64,000 nt of DNA from Candidatus Nitromaritima sp. SCGC AAA288-L16 (GTDB taxonomy: Bacteria; Nitrospinota; Nitrospinia; Nitrospinales; VA-1): assembly GCA_000372225.1 (NCBI GenBank), contig AQTY01000001.1:83272-147271 (forward strand). The letters run 5' to 3'. Positions 23,671 to 53,589 of the stretch are shown in pieces. Numbering within the stretch: the first letter of the stretch is position 1; the number at the start of each line of letters is the position of its first letter. Under the pieces are notes generated by a model, which saw only the letters and a list, made by a program, of their open reading frames with translations, searched no databases and was not told where the DNA came from. The translations under genes and the position numbers were made by a program.

Positions 23671-24999
23671 CTACTCTGGTTTTTGATATTCTCGTAGATA
23701 AGAAAGTCGAGATGGGATTTCTCCTTTCTCGCAGTAGTTATGTTTTACAAGTAGTTTAATATCATCAATAACTCTTTTGTCACCCTCAAATAATATAGTC
23801 TGATAGCCTTTATCAGCAACAAGTCCACCAACTTGCAAAAGACTCATAACAGACTTGGCATTAAATTTTTTCTCATCAACAACCACAAACAAATCCATAT
23901 TTTCGTATTTTCTGGCAATAATAGATACAAGAGTGCATGGACGAGCGTGAAAACCTAATGGTTTAGGAATAGACAACTCCACTCTCACCACTATAGAAAA
24001 GAATTTTAATATTTCCTCCGCCAGATTATTCCCTTCATTGATAAAGTATTGACTATAAAAAAAACCAAAATTGACGATTTTATCCAAAAGCACATCTTTA
24101 TTAACTATCATGGAAATACGTTTCCTATTCTCTCCAGGACGAATCTCATCCTCATGACGCTCATAAAAATGTACCAACCATAAAGACACTTCAAGAAGGT
24201 GCAAGGGCATTGACACATAACCACGCAATATTTTTAACTCTTCATGTTCAGCCTCAAGCTTTGTATTTTTAACATATGTATCAAAATCCGATTGAATATT
24301 ATGAATTAAGTTTTTGTGAAGCCTAGCTCGGTTTTCATTATATTTTTGTAAAACGACTAACTTAAGTTTTTTAATATCCTCTATTTGAGAAATCTTTGAA
24401 TCATTCATTAACCTCGAAATATGTTTGATTTTTTCGCATACTTCGATGACACGTTCTTCTTCGTCTTTCACTTCATCCTCAGCTACATTGCGAGGCAATC
24501 TTTTATTAGATTTAATATCAGAAAATTCAATCTGAATATCACTATCAATAGATATTTTCAGACTATTTACTTCGGTAGCAGCATATAACTCCTGGAGAAG
24601 ACTAAGGATAGACTGATTAAGAAAAAAAAGTACAGCTATAGAAGCATTTTTAAATTCATTTTCCTTATTGCTAGGTTCTTTCAGATTATAATAAGGGTAT
24701 CGATCTAATATATGGCGAGTAAAAAATGCTGCAATAGATAAGTTTCGTATAGAGGCTAGACACTCAACAAAGAAACTCCATTTTTTATTTTCTCTTGCTC
24801 CATATTGGTCCATAAAATTTTCTAAAGACTCCGACTCTTGAATAAGGTTAGAATAAAATTTTCTTGAGATATCTTTTTTATCTTGGTTGCGACTCTTAAA
24901 AAGAAAGAATACGTTAAAAAATTGCTCACATGGGACTTTAGCCAGCACAAGAAAATCTTTCTCGGTTATGATTTGGGTTAACGATTTAGGCTCAACCAT
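23671..24999 (-). CDS. fusion protein: unknown ~350-aa helical N-terminal domain plus C-terminal HPr phosphocarrier domain
   Basis: The C-terminal ~90 aa read LGFHARPCTLVSIIARKYE...FNAKSVMSLLQVGGLVADKGYQTILFEGD, matching HPr (GIHARPAT...NLKSIMGVMSLG). Both the His15-equivalent and Ser46-equivalent are retained. I do not recognise the N-terminal domain. Confidence 0.75.
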   Translation of the reverse strand: MVEPKSLTQIITEKDFLVLAKVPCEQFFNVFFLFKSRNQDKKDISRKFYSNLIQESESLENFMDQYGARENKKWSFFVECLASIRNLSIAAFFTRHILDRYPYYNLKEPSNKENEFKNASIAVLFFLNQSILSLLQELYAATEVNSLKISIDSDIQIEFSDIKSNKRLPRNVAEDEVKDEEERVIEVCEKIKHISRLMNDSKISQIEDIKKLKLVVLQKYNENRARLHKNLIHNIQSDFDTYVKNTKLEAEHEELKILRGYVSMPLHLLEVSLWLVHFYERHEDEIRPGENRKRISMIVNKDVLLDKIVNFGFFYSQYFINEGNNLAEEILKFFSIVVRVELSIPKPLGFHARPCTLVSIIARKYENMDLFVVVDEKKFNAKSVMSLLQVGGLVADKGYQTILFEGDKRVIDDIKLLVKHNYCEKGEIPSRLSYLREYQKPE

Positions 25000-25091: not shown

Positions 25092-25634
25092 TCAAATCAA
25101 AGACTTGGAAATCATGGATGCAGGAAGATATTTTTTCCAGATTTCTAAATGAGAGGTTGGGCCTGTTGGAATGCTAAAAAAAGGCCAATAAGAGCTAGGC
25201 TTGGATGGTTTAGTGAGTAGTTTCATTCCTTTTTCCGAAGGTGTTTGATCACCTTTTTTTAAATTACAAGATTTACAGGCACCTACTACATTAATCCAAT
25301 TGGATTTGCCTCCACGTGATTTTGGGAGCACATGGTCGACAGTCAATGAAGTATTGATTGTGCCGCAATACTGACAAGTAAAGTTATCACGACGTAAAAT
25401 ATTTTTTTTGCTAAAAGAGATTCCCCTACGTTTGGACCGTTTTACAATATTAAGAACGCGAATTACTGCCGGGAGTTTGAAGGATGTTGTTGGCGTTCGG
25501 ACCACGTAACCATCACTTTCAATAAATTCAGCCCGCTCATTAAAAACCATAATAATTGCGCGTTTTGCACTACAAAACTGAAGTGGCTCATAAGAATAGT
25601 TTAGAACCAAACTTTTCACTGAATTTAACATCAT
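25092..25634 (-). CDS. HNH endonuclease (small conserved COG1403-type)
   Basis: CQYCG...LTVDHVLPKSRGGKSNWINVVGACKSCNLKKG (HNH with CxxC pairs). Confidence 0.85.
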   Translation of the reverse strand: MMLNSVKSLVLNYSYEPLQFCSAKRAIIMVFNERAEFIESDGYVVRTPTTSFKLPAVIRVLNIVKRSKRRGISFSKKNILRRDNFTCQYCGTINTSLTVDHVLPKSRGGKSNWINVVGACKSCNLKKGDQTPSEKGMKLLTKPSKPSSYWPFFSIPTGPTSHLEIWKKYLPASMISKSLI

Positions 25635-28011: not shown

Positions 28012-28956
28012 ATGAATCAACACAGTTTTAGTAAAACTGAAGTAATAGATGGAGTCACTTTAACTTTAAGTAAACCGGACACGACAAAACCTGAATGGAT
28101 TGGCCAAAGTGAAGTTTTGAAGCAAGTTTTGGCATGCTGGATGGTTATATCAGATAAAGATCTTCCATTATCTCCTAGAATCATTGGTATGCCAGGAATA
28201 GGGAAAACCACTTTAGGAATGGTTGCGGCTTTAGAAAGAAAACAACCGCTTTATATATATCAATGTACAAGTGATACACGACCAGAAGATTTAATTGTCA
28301 CTCCTGTTTTGGCTGAATCAGGGAAAATTTCGTACCATGCATCACCATTAGTGACAGCAATGATTAGCGGAGGAATCTGCATACTAGATGAAGGCAACCG
28401 AATGAACGAAAAAAGCTGGGCTTCTCTAGCTCCTCTTCTTGATCACAGGCGCTATGTTGAATCTATTATTGCCGGACTTAGGATAAAAGCCCACGAGGAA
28501 TTTCGTGCTTGTGTCACGATGAATCACGATGAATCCACATTTGAAATCCCCGATTATATATTATCAAGACTTCAACCTACCCTAACATTGAATATGCCTA
28601 ATACTGAAGATGAGATGGCCATCTTAAAATATCACCTTCCATTCGCTGAAGCAGAATTACTTGAAATGACCGTAAACTTTCTGCAAAGATCTCACCAACT
28701 TGACCTTGAATTTTCTCCCAGGGACGGTTTACATATATTGCAATATGCGATGAAAAGGTTAATTCAAGACAAAGATCACCCCATAGCAAAAGATATGGTT
28801 TGGCAAGAATCAATTCAAAAGGTTCTTGGGGACGACGCACTAGATTTAGATGAAATGGCAGAGAAGAAAAATCGGGCATTAGGAGGAACACAATTACCGC
28901 AAGGGCTGGGTGATTTTTTTTTCGATGAAGACAGCCCGATCCATCCAGATCGATAA
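28012..28956 (+). CDS. AAA_5 / MoxR-class AAA+ ATPase (CbbQ/NorQ/GvpN/YehL-like)
   Basis: Walker [12 protein letters not shown], Walker [12 protein letters not shown], sensor-1-like ACVTMNHD. Single AAA+ module plus a helical lid, 314 aa. Confidence 0.85.
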
Positions 28957-28961
28957 CAACA

Positions 28962-30788
28962 ATGGGAATCTTTTATCTAAGTAAAAAAATCCAGTTTTTA
29001 CCCGTAATACATGGAAGCGCCTGCTTCACTCATATTATAAGAGACCGTTTATTATCATCTTCAACTGACTGTTTAGCAGTAAGCCTTCCTCCCGAATTTC
29101 AAACAACAGTAGAAGATGGAATTAATCGCCTACCACAAATCACTCTTTGCTCCCAGAAAGAATCATCGGGATCTTATAATTATGTTCCTATAGATCCTTG
29201 CCAGCCAGTCATTATGGGCCTTCGCATCGCTTCGCAAGAAGGAATCCCTAGAAAGTTTATAGATTATGGTTGCGATATCTATGAACCAAGAAAAATAAAC
29301 TTCCCTGATTCATACGCATTAAGACATATGTCGTATGAAAAATTTTGCGCTACTCTTTTACTCTCGATTAAACGCCCTGAAACTAACACGCTTCATGACA
29401 AAAGAGCGCGATGGATAGCCTACCAGCTTCATCAACTAGAATTTGATTTTAAGAATATAACTTTCATCTGTTCGATTCTAGACTGGCCTTGGATAAAAGA
29501 AGCTTATAATGAGAGAAAACCATACGATAAAATAATTTCACCTTTAAATAATCCAAAAATATTTGGGGTAGTAAAAGAAACACTCTTTTTTGCTCTGGCA
29601 GAATTTCCTTACATAACTTATCTGAATGAAATATATCGACAACAAATAAAGTCTGACAAAGAGGTTGTAGTTGACGGAATAAAAGAAATTCTTATAAAAG
29701 CTCGAAACATATTCACTAAAAAACATAAATTACGCTTTCATAATCTTACATCACAAACTTTCCAAACATACTTGCAGTACGTAAGAAATTTGACATTGAT
29801 GGAAAGCCGCTTAACACCAGATCTGTATACTTTAATAACAACTGCAAAACAATTCAGCGGCGACCCTTTCGCAATTGCTGTTCTTGAAGCGGCCAGAGAG
29901 TACCCATTTCAAGACCTTGAATCTACTAGTCTCGAACCTTTAGTGCTTGGAATCGATAAAGCTGTTGATAGTGGAAACAACCCTATTAATATGAAAAATC
30001 GCCTATCAGAAATTCAAACTGAATGGCGTGGAGTCAATCTAAAACCTGAACCTGATATAAAAAAACAAACTCAATGGAAATACAACTGGGATCCCTACGG
30101 TCAATGCTCCTGGCCACCAGAAGATGATCAAATAGAAAGCTTTAATACTCATGTTCGAGAGCAATCCAAATTACTTTTAAGCAATGACCTCGCAAGGTCC
30201 GAAAAGTTTACTTCCTCTATAAAAGATGGTGTAGACATGAGAGAATCACTTCGTCATTGGCACGAAGGTGATATCTACGTTAAAGAAATACCGCCTTCCC
30301 GCGGACGTGTTGAAATCGTTGTTTTTATTTTTGATATAGAACCCGATCCAAATAACTACCAATGGTGTCAAACTTGGTACGCCGAACATAACGAAGAATC
30401 AACATTATGTTTTTTTGCAACAAACTACATGAATGATATGGTCGGCCCTGGAGTGGGTCGTGCCACATATGGAGGATGCATGATGATCTATCCCCCTAGG
30501 CCAATACCTGACATCTGGAAAGATCCTAGAATTCATGCAGGAAAAACTTTAGAAGAAAAATTATTAGAAGCAGCCTTTTTTCATTCACAAGAAAAACATA
30601 TAGCAGTGGTTACGCCATGCCTCCCAAAATCAAACTGGCGAAAGCTTTCTCGCAAATATCACAAAAGTATTATCCACATTCCTTTAAAACGTTTCTCTAA
30701 TCAAACCATCGAAAAAGTTCGACGATTTCATGTCCTTAATGGAAAACAAATTAGATCCTTTGCAAATCATTTTATTCAAGATTTATAA
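28962..30788 (+). CDS. uncharacterised 608-aa partner of the AAA+ ATPase (possibly YehM/DUF5682-like)
   Basis: Starts 5 nt after the ATPase stop. No signal peptide/TM, no Walker motifs, and no DxSxS MIDAS motif that I can find. The N-terminus FLPVIHGSACFTHIIRDRL..CLAVSLPPEF recalls, from memory only, the DUF5682 N-terminus. Confidence 0.55.
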   Translation: MGIFYLSKKIQFLPVIHGSACFTHIIRDRLLSSSTDCLAVSLPPEFQTTVEDGINRLPQITLCSQKESSGSYNYVPIDPCQPVIMGLRIASQEGIPRKFIDYGCDIYEPRKINFPDSYALRHMSYEKFCATLLLSIKRPETNTLHDKRARWIAYQLHQLEFDFKNITFICSILDWPWIKEAYNERKPYDKIISPLNNPKIFGVVKETLFFALAEFPYITYLNEIYRQQIKSDKEVVVDGIKEILIKARNIFTKKHKLRFHNLTSQTFQTYLQYVRNLTLMESRLTPDLYTLITTAKQFSGDPFAIAVLEAAREYPFQDLESTSLEPLVLGIDKAVDSGNNPINMKNRLSEIQTEWRGVNLKPEPDIKKQTQWKYNWDPYGQCSWPPEDDQIESFNTHVREQSKLLLSNDLARSEKFTSSIKDGVDMRESLRHWHEGDIYVKEIPPSRGRVEIVVFIFDIEPDPNNYQWCQTWYAEHNEESTLCFFATNYMNDMVGPGVGRATYGGCMMIYPPRPIPDIWKDPRIHAGKTLEEKLLEAAFFHSQEKHIAVVTPCLPKSNWRKLSRKYHKSIIHIPLKRFSNQTIEKVRRFHVLNGKQIRSFANHFIQDL

Positions 30789-33821: not shown

Positions 33822-35339
33822 TTAGAGCTTATAAATTTCACTATATTTTTTTTTAAGATAGTCTATAAAAAAACATGGGTCTAGTTTTTCTCCAGTAACT
33901 TTTACAATAAGATCATCAGTTGAGTATAGTCGCCCTTTCTCATGAATATTGTCATTAAGCCATTTTTTCATACACGAGAAGTTTCCTCCCTTAATCTTTT
34001 TAGGAATATCGTTTATATCAAGCAACATCCTGGAATAAAACTGACACGCATACATAGCCCCAAGGGTGTAGGAAGGAAAGTAGCCAAATGCTCCTCCACT
34101 CCAATGTACATCCTGCAAGACTCCTTCAGAGTTAGAAGATGGCCTCACACCCAAATACTCTTCCATCTTATCATCCCAGACATCAGGTAGGTCTTTCACA
34201 CTAATGCTTTCGTCAAACAAACCCTTTTCGATCTCGTAACGAAGTATTATGTGCAGTGGATAAGTTACCTCATCCGCTTCTACCCGAATAAAAGACGGGT
34301 TACATCTATTAATGGCTGCATAAAGCTTATCTAAAGAAACACCTTGTAATGATTCTGGAAAGGTCTCCACAAAAAGGTTAAGATAAATATCACAAAAATA
34401 AATATTCTGCGCAATCATTCGCTCCCAAAACAAGGATTGAGACTCATGAATTGCCATGGTTAACGAATCAGAAACAGGTAAATCCAGAAAACCTGGCATT
34501 CTACCTTGTTCATATAACCCATGCCCTGTTTCATGTATTACCGCAAAAAGTGACTCAATAAAGTTTTCTGATCGATAGCGTGTTGTAATACGCACATCAG
34601 TCGGATGACCCCCTCCACAAAATGGGTGCACCGAAACATCCATGCGGCCCCTATCATAGTCAAACCCTATATCCTTACTGATAATTCTCCCCAAGGACTC
34701 TTGCTTATCAATTGGGAAATTACCTTTTAAAAAATCTACATCAGGATTAATAGATGATTTTCTAATTGCGTCAATGAGTGGAATTAATTCTTTTTTTAAT
34801 TTGTCAAAAATTGGAGTGAGGCGTTCCATCCTCATCCCTCGTTCAAAAACATCAATATTAGCATCGTAAGGATCTAGTTCTGGAAACGCAAATTCGGCCC
34901 ATTTCTTTTTTAAAATAATTAATCGCTCGAGAGTGGGAGCAAAATCTTCAAATTTATTTTCTTGCCTTGCCTTAGCCCATATTTGATGACCCCTGGAACT
35001 TAATTCTGCTATCTCCTGTATCAATTCTTTTGGAATTTTTGTTTCCAATTCATATTCACGCTTCGCTTCATAAATATTACATTTCTCGATCTCCGTGAAG
35101 TTATTTATATCGGCATTAACTAGTTCATCAATCAACTGGCCAAACTCCACATTAACAGATTTTTCATGTAAGACTCCCGCTAACGCTGCCATCTGCTTTG
35201 ACCGATTTTCTGCTGCCGCTATAGGCATAATGACTTCCTGATCCCAGTGCATGGTTGCCATTACACCACCTAACCTGCTGCGTTCTTTAAGCTTGATGAC
35301 TAACTGCTCATACACATCTTTTATTTTTTTGGGATTCAC
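33822..35339 (-). CDS. M32 carboxypeptidase (carboxypeptidase Taq family)
   Basis: HETGHGLYE (HExxH), HESQSLFWE, IRVEADEVTYPLHI, GVLQDVHWSGGAFGYFPSYTLG. Confidence 0.9.
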   Translation of the reverse strand: MNPKKIKDVYEQLVIKLKERSRLGGVMATMHWDQEVIMPIAAAENRSKQMAALAGVLHEKSVNVEFGQLIDELVNADINNFTEIEKCNIYEAKREYELETKIPKELIQEIAELSSRGHQIWAKARQENKFEDFAPTLERLIILKKKWAEFAFPELDPYDANIDVFERGMRMERLTPIFDKLKKELIPLIDAIRKSSINPDVDFLKGNFPIDKQESLGRIISKDIGFDYDRGRMDVSVHPFCGGGHPTDVRITTRYRSENFIESLFAVIHETGHGLYEQGRMPGFLDLPVSDSLTMAIHESQSLFWERMIAQNIYFCDIYLNLFVETFPESLQGVSLDKLYAAINRCNPSFIRVEADEVTYPLHIILRYEIEKGLFDESISVKDLPDVWDDKMEEYLGVRPSSNSEGVLQDVHWSGGAFGYFPSYTLGAMYACQFYSRMLLDINDIPKKIKGGNFSCMKKWLNDNIHEKGRLYSTDDLIVKVTGEKLDPCFFIDYLKKKYSEIYKL

Positions 35340-52554: not shown

Positions 52555-53436
52555 TCAAGCTCTTGGATGAAAACATTCGTGAACATCACGCATTCTCTCC
52601 CTTAAAACGTGAGTATATATTTGCGTGCTAGAAATATCCGCATGCCCCAGCATTTTTTGAACAGAACGCAAATCTGCTCCTCGTTCCAGGAGATGAGTAG
52701 CAAAGGCATGCCTCAAGGCATGCGGAGAAACTATACCCACTATTTTTGCCTTGATAGAATATTTTTTTAGAATTTTCCAGAAACCTTGCCTGGTCATAGA
52801 ATTCCCGCGTCTAGTTAAAAACAAGTCCTCAGTCGTACATTTTTTTTGTAATAATGGGCGCGCATTAATGACATAATTTTCAATAGTAGTTTTAGCTATA
52901 TCTCCAATAGGGACTACCCTTTCTTTAGACCCTTTACCAAGTGATCGAAGGTATCCAACTTCTAGATTGACCGCACTCATTTTCAGCGATACCAACTCTG
53001 AAACACGCAATCCAGTTGCATACATTAATTCAAGCATAGCTAAGTCTCTAACACCAGCAAGTGTATTAATATCTGGAGCGGCAATAAGCGCATCAACCTC
53101 TTGCATAGACATTACATTTGGAAGTTTTCGCCAAGGGCGTGGGGAAGCAATTGTTTCGATAGGGTTCTCGGAGATTAAATTCTCGACATATAAAAAATTA
53201 TAAAAAGATTTTAACGAAGATAAACACCTTGCTACCGAAGATGGCGCCAAACCCTCTTCATTTCTGAGAAAAACAAGAAATGACCTCACATCGCTTGCCT
53301 TATCACCACCAAGTTGATTATTTGAAAGATATTTTGCAAAACGACTAACATCCCGCCGATAAGAATCAACTGTGTTTTGAGACTGCCGTTTTTCAATTTT
53401 TAAAAAATCAGTATATTCAGAAATGTAATTATACAT
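52555..53436 (-). CDS. xerD: tyrosine recombinase XerD-like
   Basis: LRHAFATHLLERGADLRSVQKMLGHADISSTQIYTHV, ARCLSSLKSFY, GLRVSELVSL. I prefer the ATG at 53436 (MYNYISEYTDFL) over the track start at 53520. Confidence 0.85.
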   Translation of the reverse strand: MYNYISEYTDFLKIEKRQSQNTVDSYRRDVSRFAKYLSNNQLGGDKASDVRSFLVFLRNEEGLAPSSVARCLSSLKSFYNFLYVENLISENPIETIASPRPWRKLPNVMSMQEVDALIAAPDINTLAGVRDLAMLELMYATGLRVSELVSLKMSAVNLEVGYLRSLGKGSKERVVPIGDIAKTTIENYVINARPLLQKKCTTEDLFLTRRGNSMTRQGFWKILKKYSIKAKIVGIVSPHALRHAFATHLLERGADLRSVQKMLGHADISSTQIYTHVLRERMRDVHECFHPRA

Positions 53437-53589
53437 GATGAATTTATCTAATATTAACAAATACTTATGATACATTAGACAGCAATGTATATCTAGAGTA
53501 TTCTCATTGCCGTTGTTCATTATATACTGTAGAATCTCAGCCTGCAGTAATTAAACTGCCCTTCATTCGATACTCTTCAAGCCAATCTC

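Follow-up and report, generated by a model that had tools for sequence, protein, structure and literature searches.

To our knowledge, all mechanistically understood MoxR-class ATPases (CbbQ/O, NorQ/D, RavA/ViaA, CoxD/E and the midasin MIDAS system) act via a VWA/MIDAS adaptor. What kind of machine, then, would such an ATPase form with a partner that has no VWA domain? This question is raised by a gene pair in a 64,000-nt stretch of DNA from Candidatus Nitromaritima sp. SCGC AAA288-L16 (contig AQTY01000001.1, positions 83,272 to 147,271; hereafter the window, in which all positions below are counted). At present the two genes carry no annotation beyond 'AAA family ATPase' and 'hypothetical protein', and no description of this pair was found in the literature on DUF5682, YehM/YehL, MoxR with TraB, MoxR with Nitrospina, or APE2220.

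Results

A closely spaced gene pair

The first-pass annotation of this DNA had described two + strand ORFs separated by 5 nt, and both the ORF list and the sequence itself agree with this. The ATPase ORF (28012..28956, + strand) encodes a 314-aa protein with a single AAA+ module, assigned to the MoxR-class AAA_5 proteins by Pfam. Its TAA stop codon is followed, on direct reading of the sequence, by a 5-nt spacer, CAACA (28957..28961, + strand), and by the ATG of the partner ORF (28962..30788, + strand), which encodes a 608-aa protein of an unannotated family. At orthologous loci, the junction between the two genes mostly measures -4 to +23 nt. Pfam annotation of the flanking genes confirmed that the pair lies between a SirC-like gene (NAD_binding_7 and Sirohm_synth_M) and murJ; in Nitrospinota, a gene for a sirohaem-type precorrin-2 dehydrogenase is transcribed divergently from the operon. 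A scan for promoters and terminators returned counts no higher than expected from shuffled sequence.

The ATPase is a single-module AAA_5 protein

The ATPase matched Pfam AAA_5 (PF07728) over residues 57-186 with 64.2 bits (cutoff 22, E = 1.6e-17). The three motifs quoted in the first-pass annotation are all present, starting at residues 59, 123 and 168. Walker A (GMPGIGKTT, residues 59-67, 28186..28212, + strand) is near-invariant in 53 orthologues, in which LDEGNRM of the Walker B region (CILDEGNR, residues 123-130, 28378..28401, + strand) is invariant and TMN of the sensor-1 region (VTMNHD, residues 168-173, 28513..28530, + strand) is conserved. Judged from its sequence, the ATPase is a single-module MoxR-class AAA_5 protein with intact catalytic motifs. 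Its closest sequence relatives in the PDB are ring-forming MoxR/midasin modules: the AAA modules of midasin (6.7e-13), CbbQ (5c3c, 1.4e-8) and NorQ (2.1e-6). The placement as a single-module AAA_5/MoxR-class protein thus stands, but the ATPase falls outside the CbbQ/NorQ, GvpN and YehL subfamilies to which it had been likened. Orthology to CbbQ/NorQ was rejected, with no CbbQ_C among the Pfam matches at E <= 1 and no VWA in the partner; so were identity with GvpN (TIGR02640, 24.8 bits; cutoff 266.8) and orthology to YehL (best BLASTP match to E. coli YehL, E = 0.79). Identity of the ATPase across phyla is 62-85%, and 51% to an archaeal orthologue. This unusually slow evolution indicates strong constraint and a probably important cellular role.

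The partner contains no detectable VWA domain

No Pfam, NCBIfam or PADLOC match was obtained for the 608-aa partner, and HMM profiles of the full-length partner and of its N-domain retrieved nothing meaningful from the PDB sequences. A motif scan of the partner found no D.S.S, D.[ST].[ST] or P-loop, and neither a CxxC nor an HExxH metal-binding motif. With a highest 19-residue Kyte-Doolittle mean of 1.31, the partner shows no evident TM segment or signal peptide. These analyses bear out the earlier statement that the partner has no DxSxS motif, nucleotide-binding loop, signal peptide or TM segment. Moreover, the Pfam scan, which covered the window partner and 85 family representatives, detected no VWA domain in any of them, and hhalign of the partner family gave 10.6% against YehP (VWA) and 0.3% against YehQ (SWIM). 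An AF2 model of the partner based on a 120-sequence alignment (pLDDT 94.9, pTM 0.88) replaced an earlier run on 19 sequences, in which the C-terminal part was poorly modelled (pLDDT 54.8). With the new model, Foldseek found no significant match in the PDB and no VWA structure among the matches. A cryptic VWA or SWIM domain was rejected on the basis of Pfam, the comparisons with YehP and YehQ and the motif scan, and the reported absence of VWA/MIDAS held in motifs, Pfam, hhalign against YehP and Foldseek alike. A weak Ribonuclease_T2 match in the partner (E = 0.012, below cutoff) was considered noise because it is absent from the other family members scanned.

The strings quoted from the partner in the first-pass annotation were located at residues 12, 37, 382, 468 and 504. 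The last third of the protein had been called Cys/Trp/His-rich; His is indeed clearly enriched (4.9% vs 2.0%) and Trp slightly (2.5% vs 1.7%), but Cys is not (2.0% vs 2.0%). Two of the Cys residues in the quoted strings, C483 and C506, lack conservation across the wider family, and the 'Cys/Trp/His-rich' character of this region is mostly lineage-specific.

The N-terminal region is related to YehM and may resemble TraB proteins

Residues 1-200 of the partner (28962..29561, + strand) form an alpha/beta domain that hhalign identified as a homologue of the YehM/DUF5682 N-terminus and that is TraB/TIKI-like by Foldseek. It is followed by a helical region in the AF2 model (residues ~205-312, 29574..29897, + strand), which by the extent of the hhalign alignment lies mostly within the YehM-homologous stretch (to ~294). 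The hhalign values were 93% for the partner against YehM, with a homologous stretch of ~10-294 that corresponds to the N-terminal third of YehM/DUF5682, 95.7% against the YehM family (E = 1.1e-8) and 97.2% for the N-domain against the YehM N-domain (E = 3.4e-11). The likeness to YehM/DUF5682 proposed earlier is therefore real over the N-terminal ~300 residues, but the window partner did not match Pfam DUF5682 (PF18934) at E <= 1. Weak DUF5682 matches occurred in 21 of 75 distant family members, the best seen falling just short of the cutoff of 26 with 25.4 bits. Full DUF5682 membership was rejected, only the N-terminal third being homologous.

The top BFVD Foldseek match of the partner model was a TraB family protein (probability 1.00, E = 3.1e-3, TM 0.42 on target). 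Distant family members gave weak matches to TraB_PrgY_gumN and DUF5694, none of which reached the Pfam threshold, and hhalign of the partner family against E. coli YbaP was not significant. Enzymes of the TIKI superfamily hydrolyse peptides or esters via a 2His/2Glu site (PMC6254334). In the partner family, these residues follow the expected order (beta1, beta2, a helix and a GxxH strand), and 70 of 120 family representatives, as well as YehM, carry the complete HEEH set. The window partner has H17, S41, M85 and D174 at these positions and so retains only H17; two to three of the four TIKI residues are lost throughout its clade.

The C-terminal region is the most conserved part of the partner family

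Conservation in the family is highest in the family-specific C-terminal alpha/beta region (residues ~325-608, 29934..30785, + strand). G423, E475, P511, H590 and R598 are invariant, and S383, E387, D388, E392, D422, R431, H476, E479, S480, G495-P-G497 and G504-G505 are near-invariant. Foldseek found no PDB fold match for this region. In hhalign comparisons, the C-domain scored below 1% against the partner N-domain and against either half of YehM: its probability was 0.3% against the YehM C-terminal profile, leaving the C-terminal ~430 residues of YehM unmatched, and 0.9% against the N-domain, of which it is thus not a duplicate. An HTH suggested by weak 'Mor' matches at the extreme C-terminus of three members was rejected because the AF2 model has a beta-strand there.

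The pair is widespread and lies in housekeeping contexts

One search with the partner gave 2939 matches and another gave 1171 clusters at 50% identity. At least 585 stretches in the species-representative genome set match the family of the pair, which was found in some archaea and in seven or more bacterial phyla. Both genes are genuine, and conservation of their products extends across phyla. The ATPase gene lies directly upstream of the partner gene in 63 of 76 assessable reference genomes (spanning Nitrospinota, Nitrospirota, Latescibacterota, Gemmatimonadota, Planctomycetota and Omnitrophota), and the same adjacency occurs in 8 of 10 distant contexts, Archaea and Chlamydiota included. No ATPase gene was found within ~7 kb at nine Planctomycetota loci and two distant contexts, so adjacency is conserved but not obligatory. 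The first-pass annotation had named a match to a characterised family, a cryptic VWA domain and a lack of conserved adjacency as outcomes that would speak against it; none of them arose.

Besides the ATPase and partner genes, nothing in the neighbourhood is conserved, and the surroundings are unrelated housekeeping genes whose synteny is stable within phyla. The first-pass annotation had asked whether VWA or SWIM genes accompany the pair in relatives; none was present among the recurrent neighbour clusters, the Pfam-annotated distant loci and the window ORFs scanned, although a VWA/MIDAS partner gene nearby is typical, if not universal, for MoxR-class AAA_5 ATPases. Likewise, no Rubisco or NOR genes are conserved near the pair. 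SirC and murJ were rejected as functional partners because their synteny with the pair is limited to Nitrospinota (SirC: cluster 17, 8 loci). KsgA, a TRAM methyltransferase, TtcA, QueG, XseA, LigA and archaeal S13/S4/S11 recur near the pair, and we judge these RNA-modification, ribosomal and DNA-repair neighbours not to be clearly above the expectation for any housekeeping neighbourhood.

Searches of 50,697 phage records and 72,556 plasmids gave zero matches and one match to the family, respectively. In PADLOC, the best match of the ATPase was IetA (E = 0.043), and the partner had none. A defence island or mobile element was rejected on the PADLOC, phage and plasmid searches, and the flanking genes together with the near-absence from phages and plasmids support the earlier view of a core context rather than an island.

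Discussion

We favour the reading, with a probability of roughly 45%, that the pair encodes a conserved MoxR machine for remodelling in the cell, whose adaptor or effector is of a new kind. The two genes would then be a translationally coupled operon for a cytoplasmic MoxR-class AAA+ machine. By homology with CbbQ/NorQ, the ATPase presumably assembles into a hexameric ring for ATP-driven remodelling, and the partner would be dedicated to this ATPase in place of the VWA/MIDAS adaptor of characterised MoxR systems. Since Yeh operons too pair a YehM-like module with an AAA_5 ATPase, the N-terminal TraB/TIKI-like domain and the helical region of the partner may dock onto the ATPase. In this lineage, the N-domain would be structural rather than hydrolytic because three of the four putative catalytic residues have been lost. 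The C-domain, with its invariant or near-invariant Glu/Asp/His/Arg cluster, would be the working end that binds, and possibly processes chemically, a conserved cellular client. Three features suggest that this client is a widely shared cellular substrate rather than one related to defence: the pair lies among housekeeping genes, its ATPase evolves slowly, and it occurs in Bacteria as well as in Archaea. Because most of the family retains the HEEH set, the partner may act as an enzyme and not as an adaptor in most lineages, as it may have done ancestrally.

The pair resembles CbbQ-CbbO and NorQ-NorD in that the gene for a ~300-aa single-module AAA_5 ATPase precedes that for a large dedicated partner, but differs from them in having no detected CbbQ_C, no VWA/MIDAS in the partner and no conserved Rubisco or NOR genes. 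In E. coli YehL-YehM, an AAA_5 gene likewise precedes one for a protein homologous to the partner over its N-terminal ~300 residues, and YehM and the partner family carry the H/E/E/H set at equivalent positions; the C-terminal halves, in contrast, are unrelated, and the two ATPases are not similar by BLASTP. Moreover, the Yeh system includes YehP (VWA) and YehQ (SWIM), whereas no such genes accompany the pair at the loci examined. The best fold match would connect the partner to the TIKI/TraB/PrgY/GumN superfamily (Tiki, PrgY, RRSP and erythromycin esterases), although no family member reaches a Pfam threshold and the window partner keeps a single residue of the set. We know of no TIKI/TraB superfamily member partnered with an AAA+ ATPase, and no paper linking MoxR with TraB partners was found. 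In McrB-McrC, an AAA_5-class NTPase ring has a non-VWA partner encoded directly downstream. The window ATPase shares this fold class and this arrangement; unlike McrB-McrC, its partner has no sequence or Pfam relation to McrC, its context is housekeeping rather than restriction and its P-loop is of the ATPase type.

Several other explanations were weighed against this reading. It is possible, if doubtful, that the pair is an ATP-gated hydrolase, in which the partner would be catalytic (a protease, an esterase or another enzyme) and the AAA+ ring would deliver or unfold the substrate or license catalysis, as in McrB-McrC or the AAA+ proteases; the active site would be HEEH in most of the family and the acidic/His cluster of the C-domain in this lineage. 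AAA_5 proteins with non-VWA enzymatic partners do exist, McrBC being an example, and the invariant E475, H590 and R598 with their near-invariant acidic and His neighbours are typical of a catalytic or metal site. TIKI enzymes work through a 2His/2Glu site (PMC6254334), and the equivalent HEEH set is intact in more than half of the representatives and in YehM. However, both genes remain strongly constrained in the window clade despite its loss of TIKI residues, so that TIKI-type hydrolysis cannot be the indispensable activity, and Foldseek PDB, Pfam and PDB sequence searches revealed no known hydrolase similar to the C-domain. MoxR-class ATPases, moreover, are not known to be unfoldases. It is unlikely that Bacteria and Archaea share the pair as an ancient AAA+ machine with a housekeeping role, whose C-domain would be a fold or enzyme not seen before, acting on a universal cellular client. 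This client would possibly be a ribosome- or RNA-associated complex, by analogy with the AAA_5 modules of Rea1/midasin, the best solved relatives of the ATPase. If this reading holds, the pair would establish a further class of MoxR systems, one that can do without a VWA/MIDAS adaptor.

We regard as likewise unlikely a metal- or cofactor-insertion chaperone like NorQ/NorD, CoxD/CoxE or CobS/CobT, with the acidic/His cluster of the C-domain replacing MIDAS. NorQ and CbbQ are among the nearest characterised relatives of the ATPase, conserved carboxylate and His residues could ligate a metal, and the divergent precorrin-2 dehydrogenase gene in Nitrospinota would fit such a role. That adjacency, however, is confined to Nitrospinota (eight loci), other phyla have no candidate metalloenzyme as a conserved neighbour, and the partner contains no CxxC or HExxH. 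A reduced or diverged YehLMPQ-type system, whose YehP-like VWA and YehQ-like SWIM proteins would be encoded elsewhere, would explain the YehM-homologous N-terminus and the AAA_5 gene immediately upstream in both systems. It is nevertheless very unlikely, given that YehM has no relation to the C-terminal 310 residues of the partner, that BLASTP finds no similarity between the ATPase and YehL, and that neither gene search at the loci examined nor hhalign against YehP and YehQ recovered the missing components. An anti-phage or conflict system, for instance McrBC-like or another NTPase-effector pair, is hardly credible. An NTPase with a large effector in a two-gene architecture, the AAA_5 fold class of McrB and weak Foldseek matches to Argonaute- and CARF-associated proteins (all non-significant) would be in line with it, but there was no PADLOC match, no phage match and a single plasmid match, the housekeeping synteny is stable, no defence genes were seen nearby, and the ATPase is still half identical between Bacteria and Archaea.

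The pair thus presents a different partner architecture for a MoxR ATPase, in which a TraB/YehM-like module is joined to a C-domain without detectable relatives. It also offers a first way into the N-terminal module of DUF5682/YehM, a family not yet characterised, and a natural experiment, because the putative TIKI set has been lost repeatedly with the pair retained.

Conservation and genomic setting of the gene pair

The ATPase gene (314 aa; 28012-28956, + strand) and the partner gene (608 aa; 28962-30788, + strand) were found where the first-pass annotation had placed them, and their junction reads TAA, then CAACA, then ATG. As also proposed there, the pair is flanked by a SirC-like gene on one side and murJ on the other; the SirC-like gene is divergent and encodes a precorrin-2 dehydrogenase. 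The locus belongs to the core chromosome of a marine Nitrospinota bacterium, with a low GC content in the window (about 36%), and further window genes include pyrB, pyrC, carAB, plsX-fabHDF, hisS, acs, mgtE and similar genes. For both proteins, the nearest homologues are found in MAGs of Nitrospinales and Nitrospinaceae.

Among the best 80 loci from species-representative genomes, the ATPase gene lies immediately upstream of the partner gene on the same strand in 63, is displaced 0.6-2.9 kb upstream in 4, and is absent within ~7 kb in 9, all from Planctomycetota; at the other 4 the upstream sequence is too short for assessment. Junctions across loci mostly range from -4 to +23 nt. In ten distant contexts, partner identity falls to 25-30%; eight of these still have the ATPase (49-53% identity) directly upstream, among them an archaeal locus where Rpb5/Rpb2 and S13/S4/S11 genes flank the pair and a Neochlamydia megaplasmid where RefSeq annotates an 'AAA family ATPase' and a 'hypothetical protein'. 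These data indicate that the adjacency of the two genes is conserved. In the loci compared, conservation of any other neighbour ends at phylum level; recurrent flanking genes encode LigA, anthranilate synthase, MurJ, an amidohydrolase and similar housekeeping functions. VWA and SWIM genes were found neither among the recurrent neighbour clusters nor in the Pfam-annotated distant loci, and neither domain occurred in any window ORF scanned.

RNA-modification, translation or DNA-repair genes often adjoin the pair in unrelated lineages (L084-L088, L090, L092, L093, L098 and Nitrospirota loci), such as those for TRAM/U5-methyltransferase, TtcA, QueG, pseudouridine synthase, LigA and archaeal S13/S4/S11; genes for KsgA and XseA also occur and overlap the partner's stop codon. 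We judged this recurrence not clearly above background. Rubisco is activated by CbbQ-type relatives, and a RuBisCO large-subunit-family gene occurs at a single distant locus (L083, 3967-5343), about 1 kb away from the pair and on the other strand. Carboxypeptidase Taq (M32) is encoded within about 3 kb of the pair in the window (33822-35339, - strand) and again at the distant locus L092 (10154-11653), probably by coincidence.

Elsewhere in the window, a 442-aa protein (23671-24999, - strand), whose gene is syntenic across other Nitrospinota loci, can be recognized only in its C-terminal part, as an HPr-like domain (PF00381, E = 7e-7, residues 341-391); the rest of this fusion, about 340 residues, is unknown sequence, and HPr is not usually built in this way. 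A 180-aa HNH endonuclease (HNH_5, E = 3e-14; 25092-25634, - strand) in housekeeping surroundings keeps its position across about 10 Nitrospinota loci (neighbour cluster 11) and is therefore no sporadic mobile insertion. The tyrosine recombinase at 52555-53520 (- strand; Phage_integrase and SAM-like N domains), also among housekeeping genes, most likely represents XerC/D, not a prophage integrase.

The ATPase

The ATPase is an AAA_5 protein (64.2 bits against a Pfam cutoff of 22), and the motifs quoted in the first-pass annotation were all confirmed at their places. Its nearest solved relatives by sequence are midasin AAA modules (E = 6.7e-13), CbbQ (1.4e-8) and NorQ (2.1e-6). Its proposed membership in the CbbQ/NorQ, GvpN or YehL subfamilies did not hold: the Pfam scan detected no CbbQ_C domain, the GvpN equivalog score was 24.8 bits where the cutoff is 266.8, and BLASTP showed no similarity to E. 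coli YehL. In public sources it is named no more precisely than 'MoxR-like ATPase' or 'AAA family ATPase'. Across 53 orthologues, near-invariant positions comprise Walker A, Walker B, the TMN sensor-1 and several Arg residues. Over six phyla, ATPase identity is 62-85% (median 67%) and partner identity at the same loci 41-79% (median 47%), and an archaeal ATPase orthologue is 51% identical to that of the window; the ATPase evolves slowly. A C-terminal tail motif, G-D-F-F-F (residues ~299-304; window 28906-28923), is kept in closer orthologues and lies outside the region alignable to distant ones, where alignments stop near residue 277; it may serve as a docking peptide specific to the clade.

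The partner protein

Apart from a sub-threshold Pfam match to Ribonuclease_T2, the window partner matched nothing in Pfam, NCBIfam or PADLOC, and profile searches of PDB sequences returned nothing. It indeed lacks a DxSxS motif, a P-loop and a hydrophobic segment (Kyte-Doolittle 19-residue mean peaking at 1.31). Its last third, described earlier as Cys/Trp/His-rich, is clearly enriched in His but not clearly in Cys or Trp. The family has 2939 matches in a 90%-clustered database and 1171 clusters at E <= 1e-3 in a 50%-clustered representative library, 364 of them at E <= 1e-30. A poor structure model from a shallow alignment was superseded by one from a 120-sequence alignment (pLDDT 94.9, pTM 0.88). 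At a few loci (L045 5753-8821, L043 and L028) the mechanically called partner ORF begins 200-400 residues ahead of the conserved start, which may reflect either true N-terminal extensions or ORF-calling artefacts.

The suspected resemblance to YehM reflects real homology to the E. coli YehM family, but is confined to residues ~10-294. Profile comparison of the partner family gave a probability of 93% (E = 3e-7) against YehM and 95.7% (E = 1.1e-8) against the YehM-family profile, rising to 97.2% (E = 3.4e-11) between the two N-domains. Among 75 distant members, sub-threshold matches were to DUF5682 (21; best score 25.4 bits, cutoff 26), TraB_PrgY_gumN (5) and DUF5694 (4). The top Foldseek match in BFVD was a 'TraB family protein' (probability 1.00, E = 3.1e-3, TM 0.42 on target, 236 columns). 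Because direct hhalign comparison with E. coli YbaP (TraB family) was not significant, TIKI/TraB-superfamily membership of the N-domain is suggestive, not proven.

Enzymes of the TIKI/TraB superfamily use a 2His/2Glu set (PMC6254334). The equivalent columns (HEEH) hold H in 102, E in 90, E in 103 and H in 86 of 120 partner-family representatives, with the complete set in 70, and all four residues are invariant in YehM. The window partner carries H17, S41, M85 and D174, its Nitrospinota relatives H-A-M-D, and relatives of 30-50% identity have also lost one to three each. Yet the clade conserves the N-domain well, at a mean column identity of 78%, and thus keeps it in a role other than that of a TIKI-type hydrolase. 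In the Nitrospinota clade the family GxxH is replaced by an invariant C170-S171-x-x-D174-W-P-W (residues 170-177; window 29469-29492) and H17 is kept; these residues might conceivably form a repurposed Ser/Cys-His-Asp arrangement where the TIKI site used to be.

The best-conserved part of the family is the C-domain (residues ~325-608), with G423, E475, P511, H590 and R598 invariant and S383, P386, E387, D388, E392, D422, R431, H476, E479, S480, GPG495-497 and G504-G505 near-invariant.

A candidate two-protein machine

Our results support a machine of two dedicated proteins that serves a conserved role in the cell. A defence system is less likely: as the first-pass annotation argued, the flanks are housekeeping genes, and the partner family occurs in 0 of 50,697 phage records and 1 of 72,556 plasmids, with 2 matches among 2.9 million IMG/VR contigs. 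The ATPase would act as a MoxR-type remodelling ATPase, with the partner standing in for the VWA adaptor. Since the pairing of AAA_5 with a YehM-like protein recurs in Yeh operons, the N-module may be the ATPase-facing part, and the invariant C-domain may form a client-facing or catalytic head. Reading the pair as a Yeh-like system itself, or as a metal-insertion system, is less likely. The main rival is an ATP-gated hydrolase with the partner as catalytic subunit. For the majority of the family, which bears HEEH, this reading is plausible; the window lineage weakens it as regards the TIKI site but not as regards the C-domain.

Searches of the available literature turned up no account of the pair, and the partner is covered by neither Pfam nor NCBIfam. 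The ATPase adds a new member to a known class. Taken as a system, the pair varies the MoxR and adaptor theme in a new way, through a non-VWA partner whose C-terminal domain has no detectable relatives.
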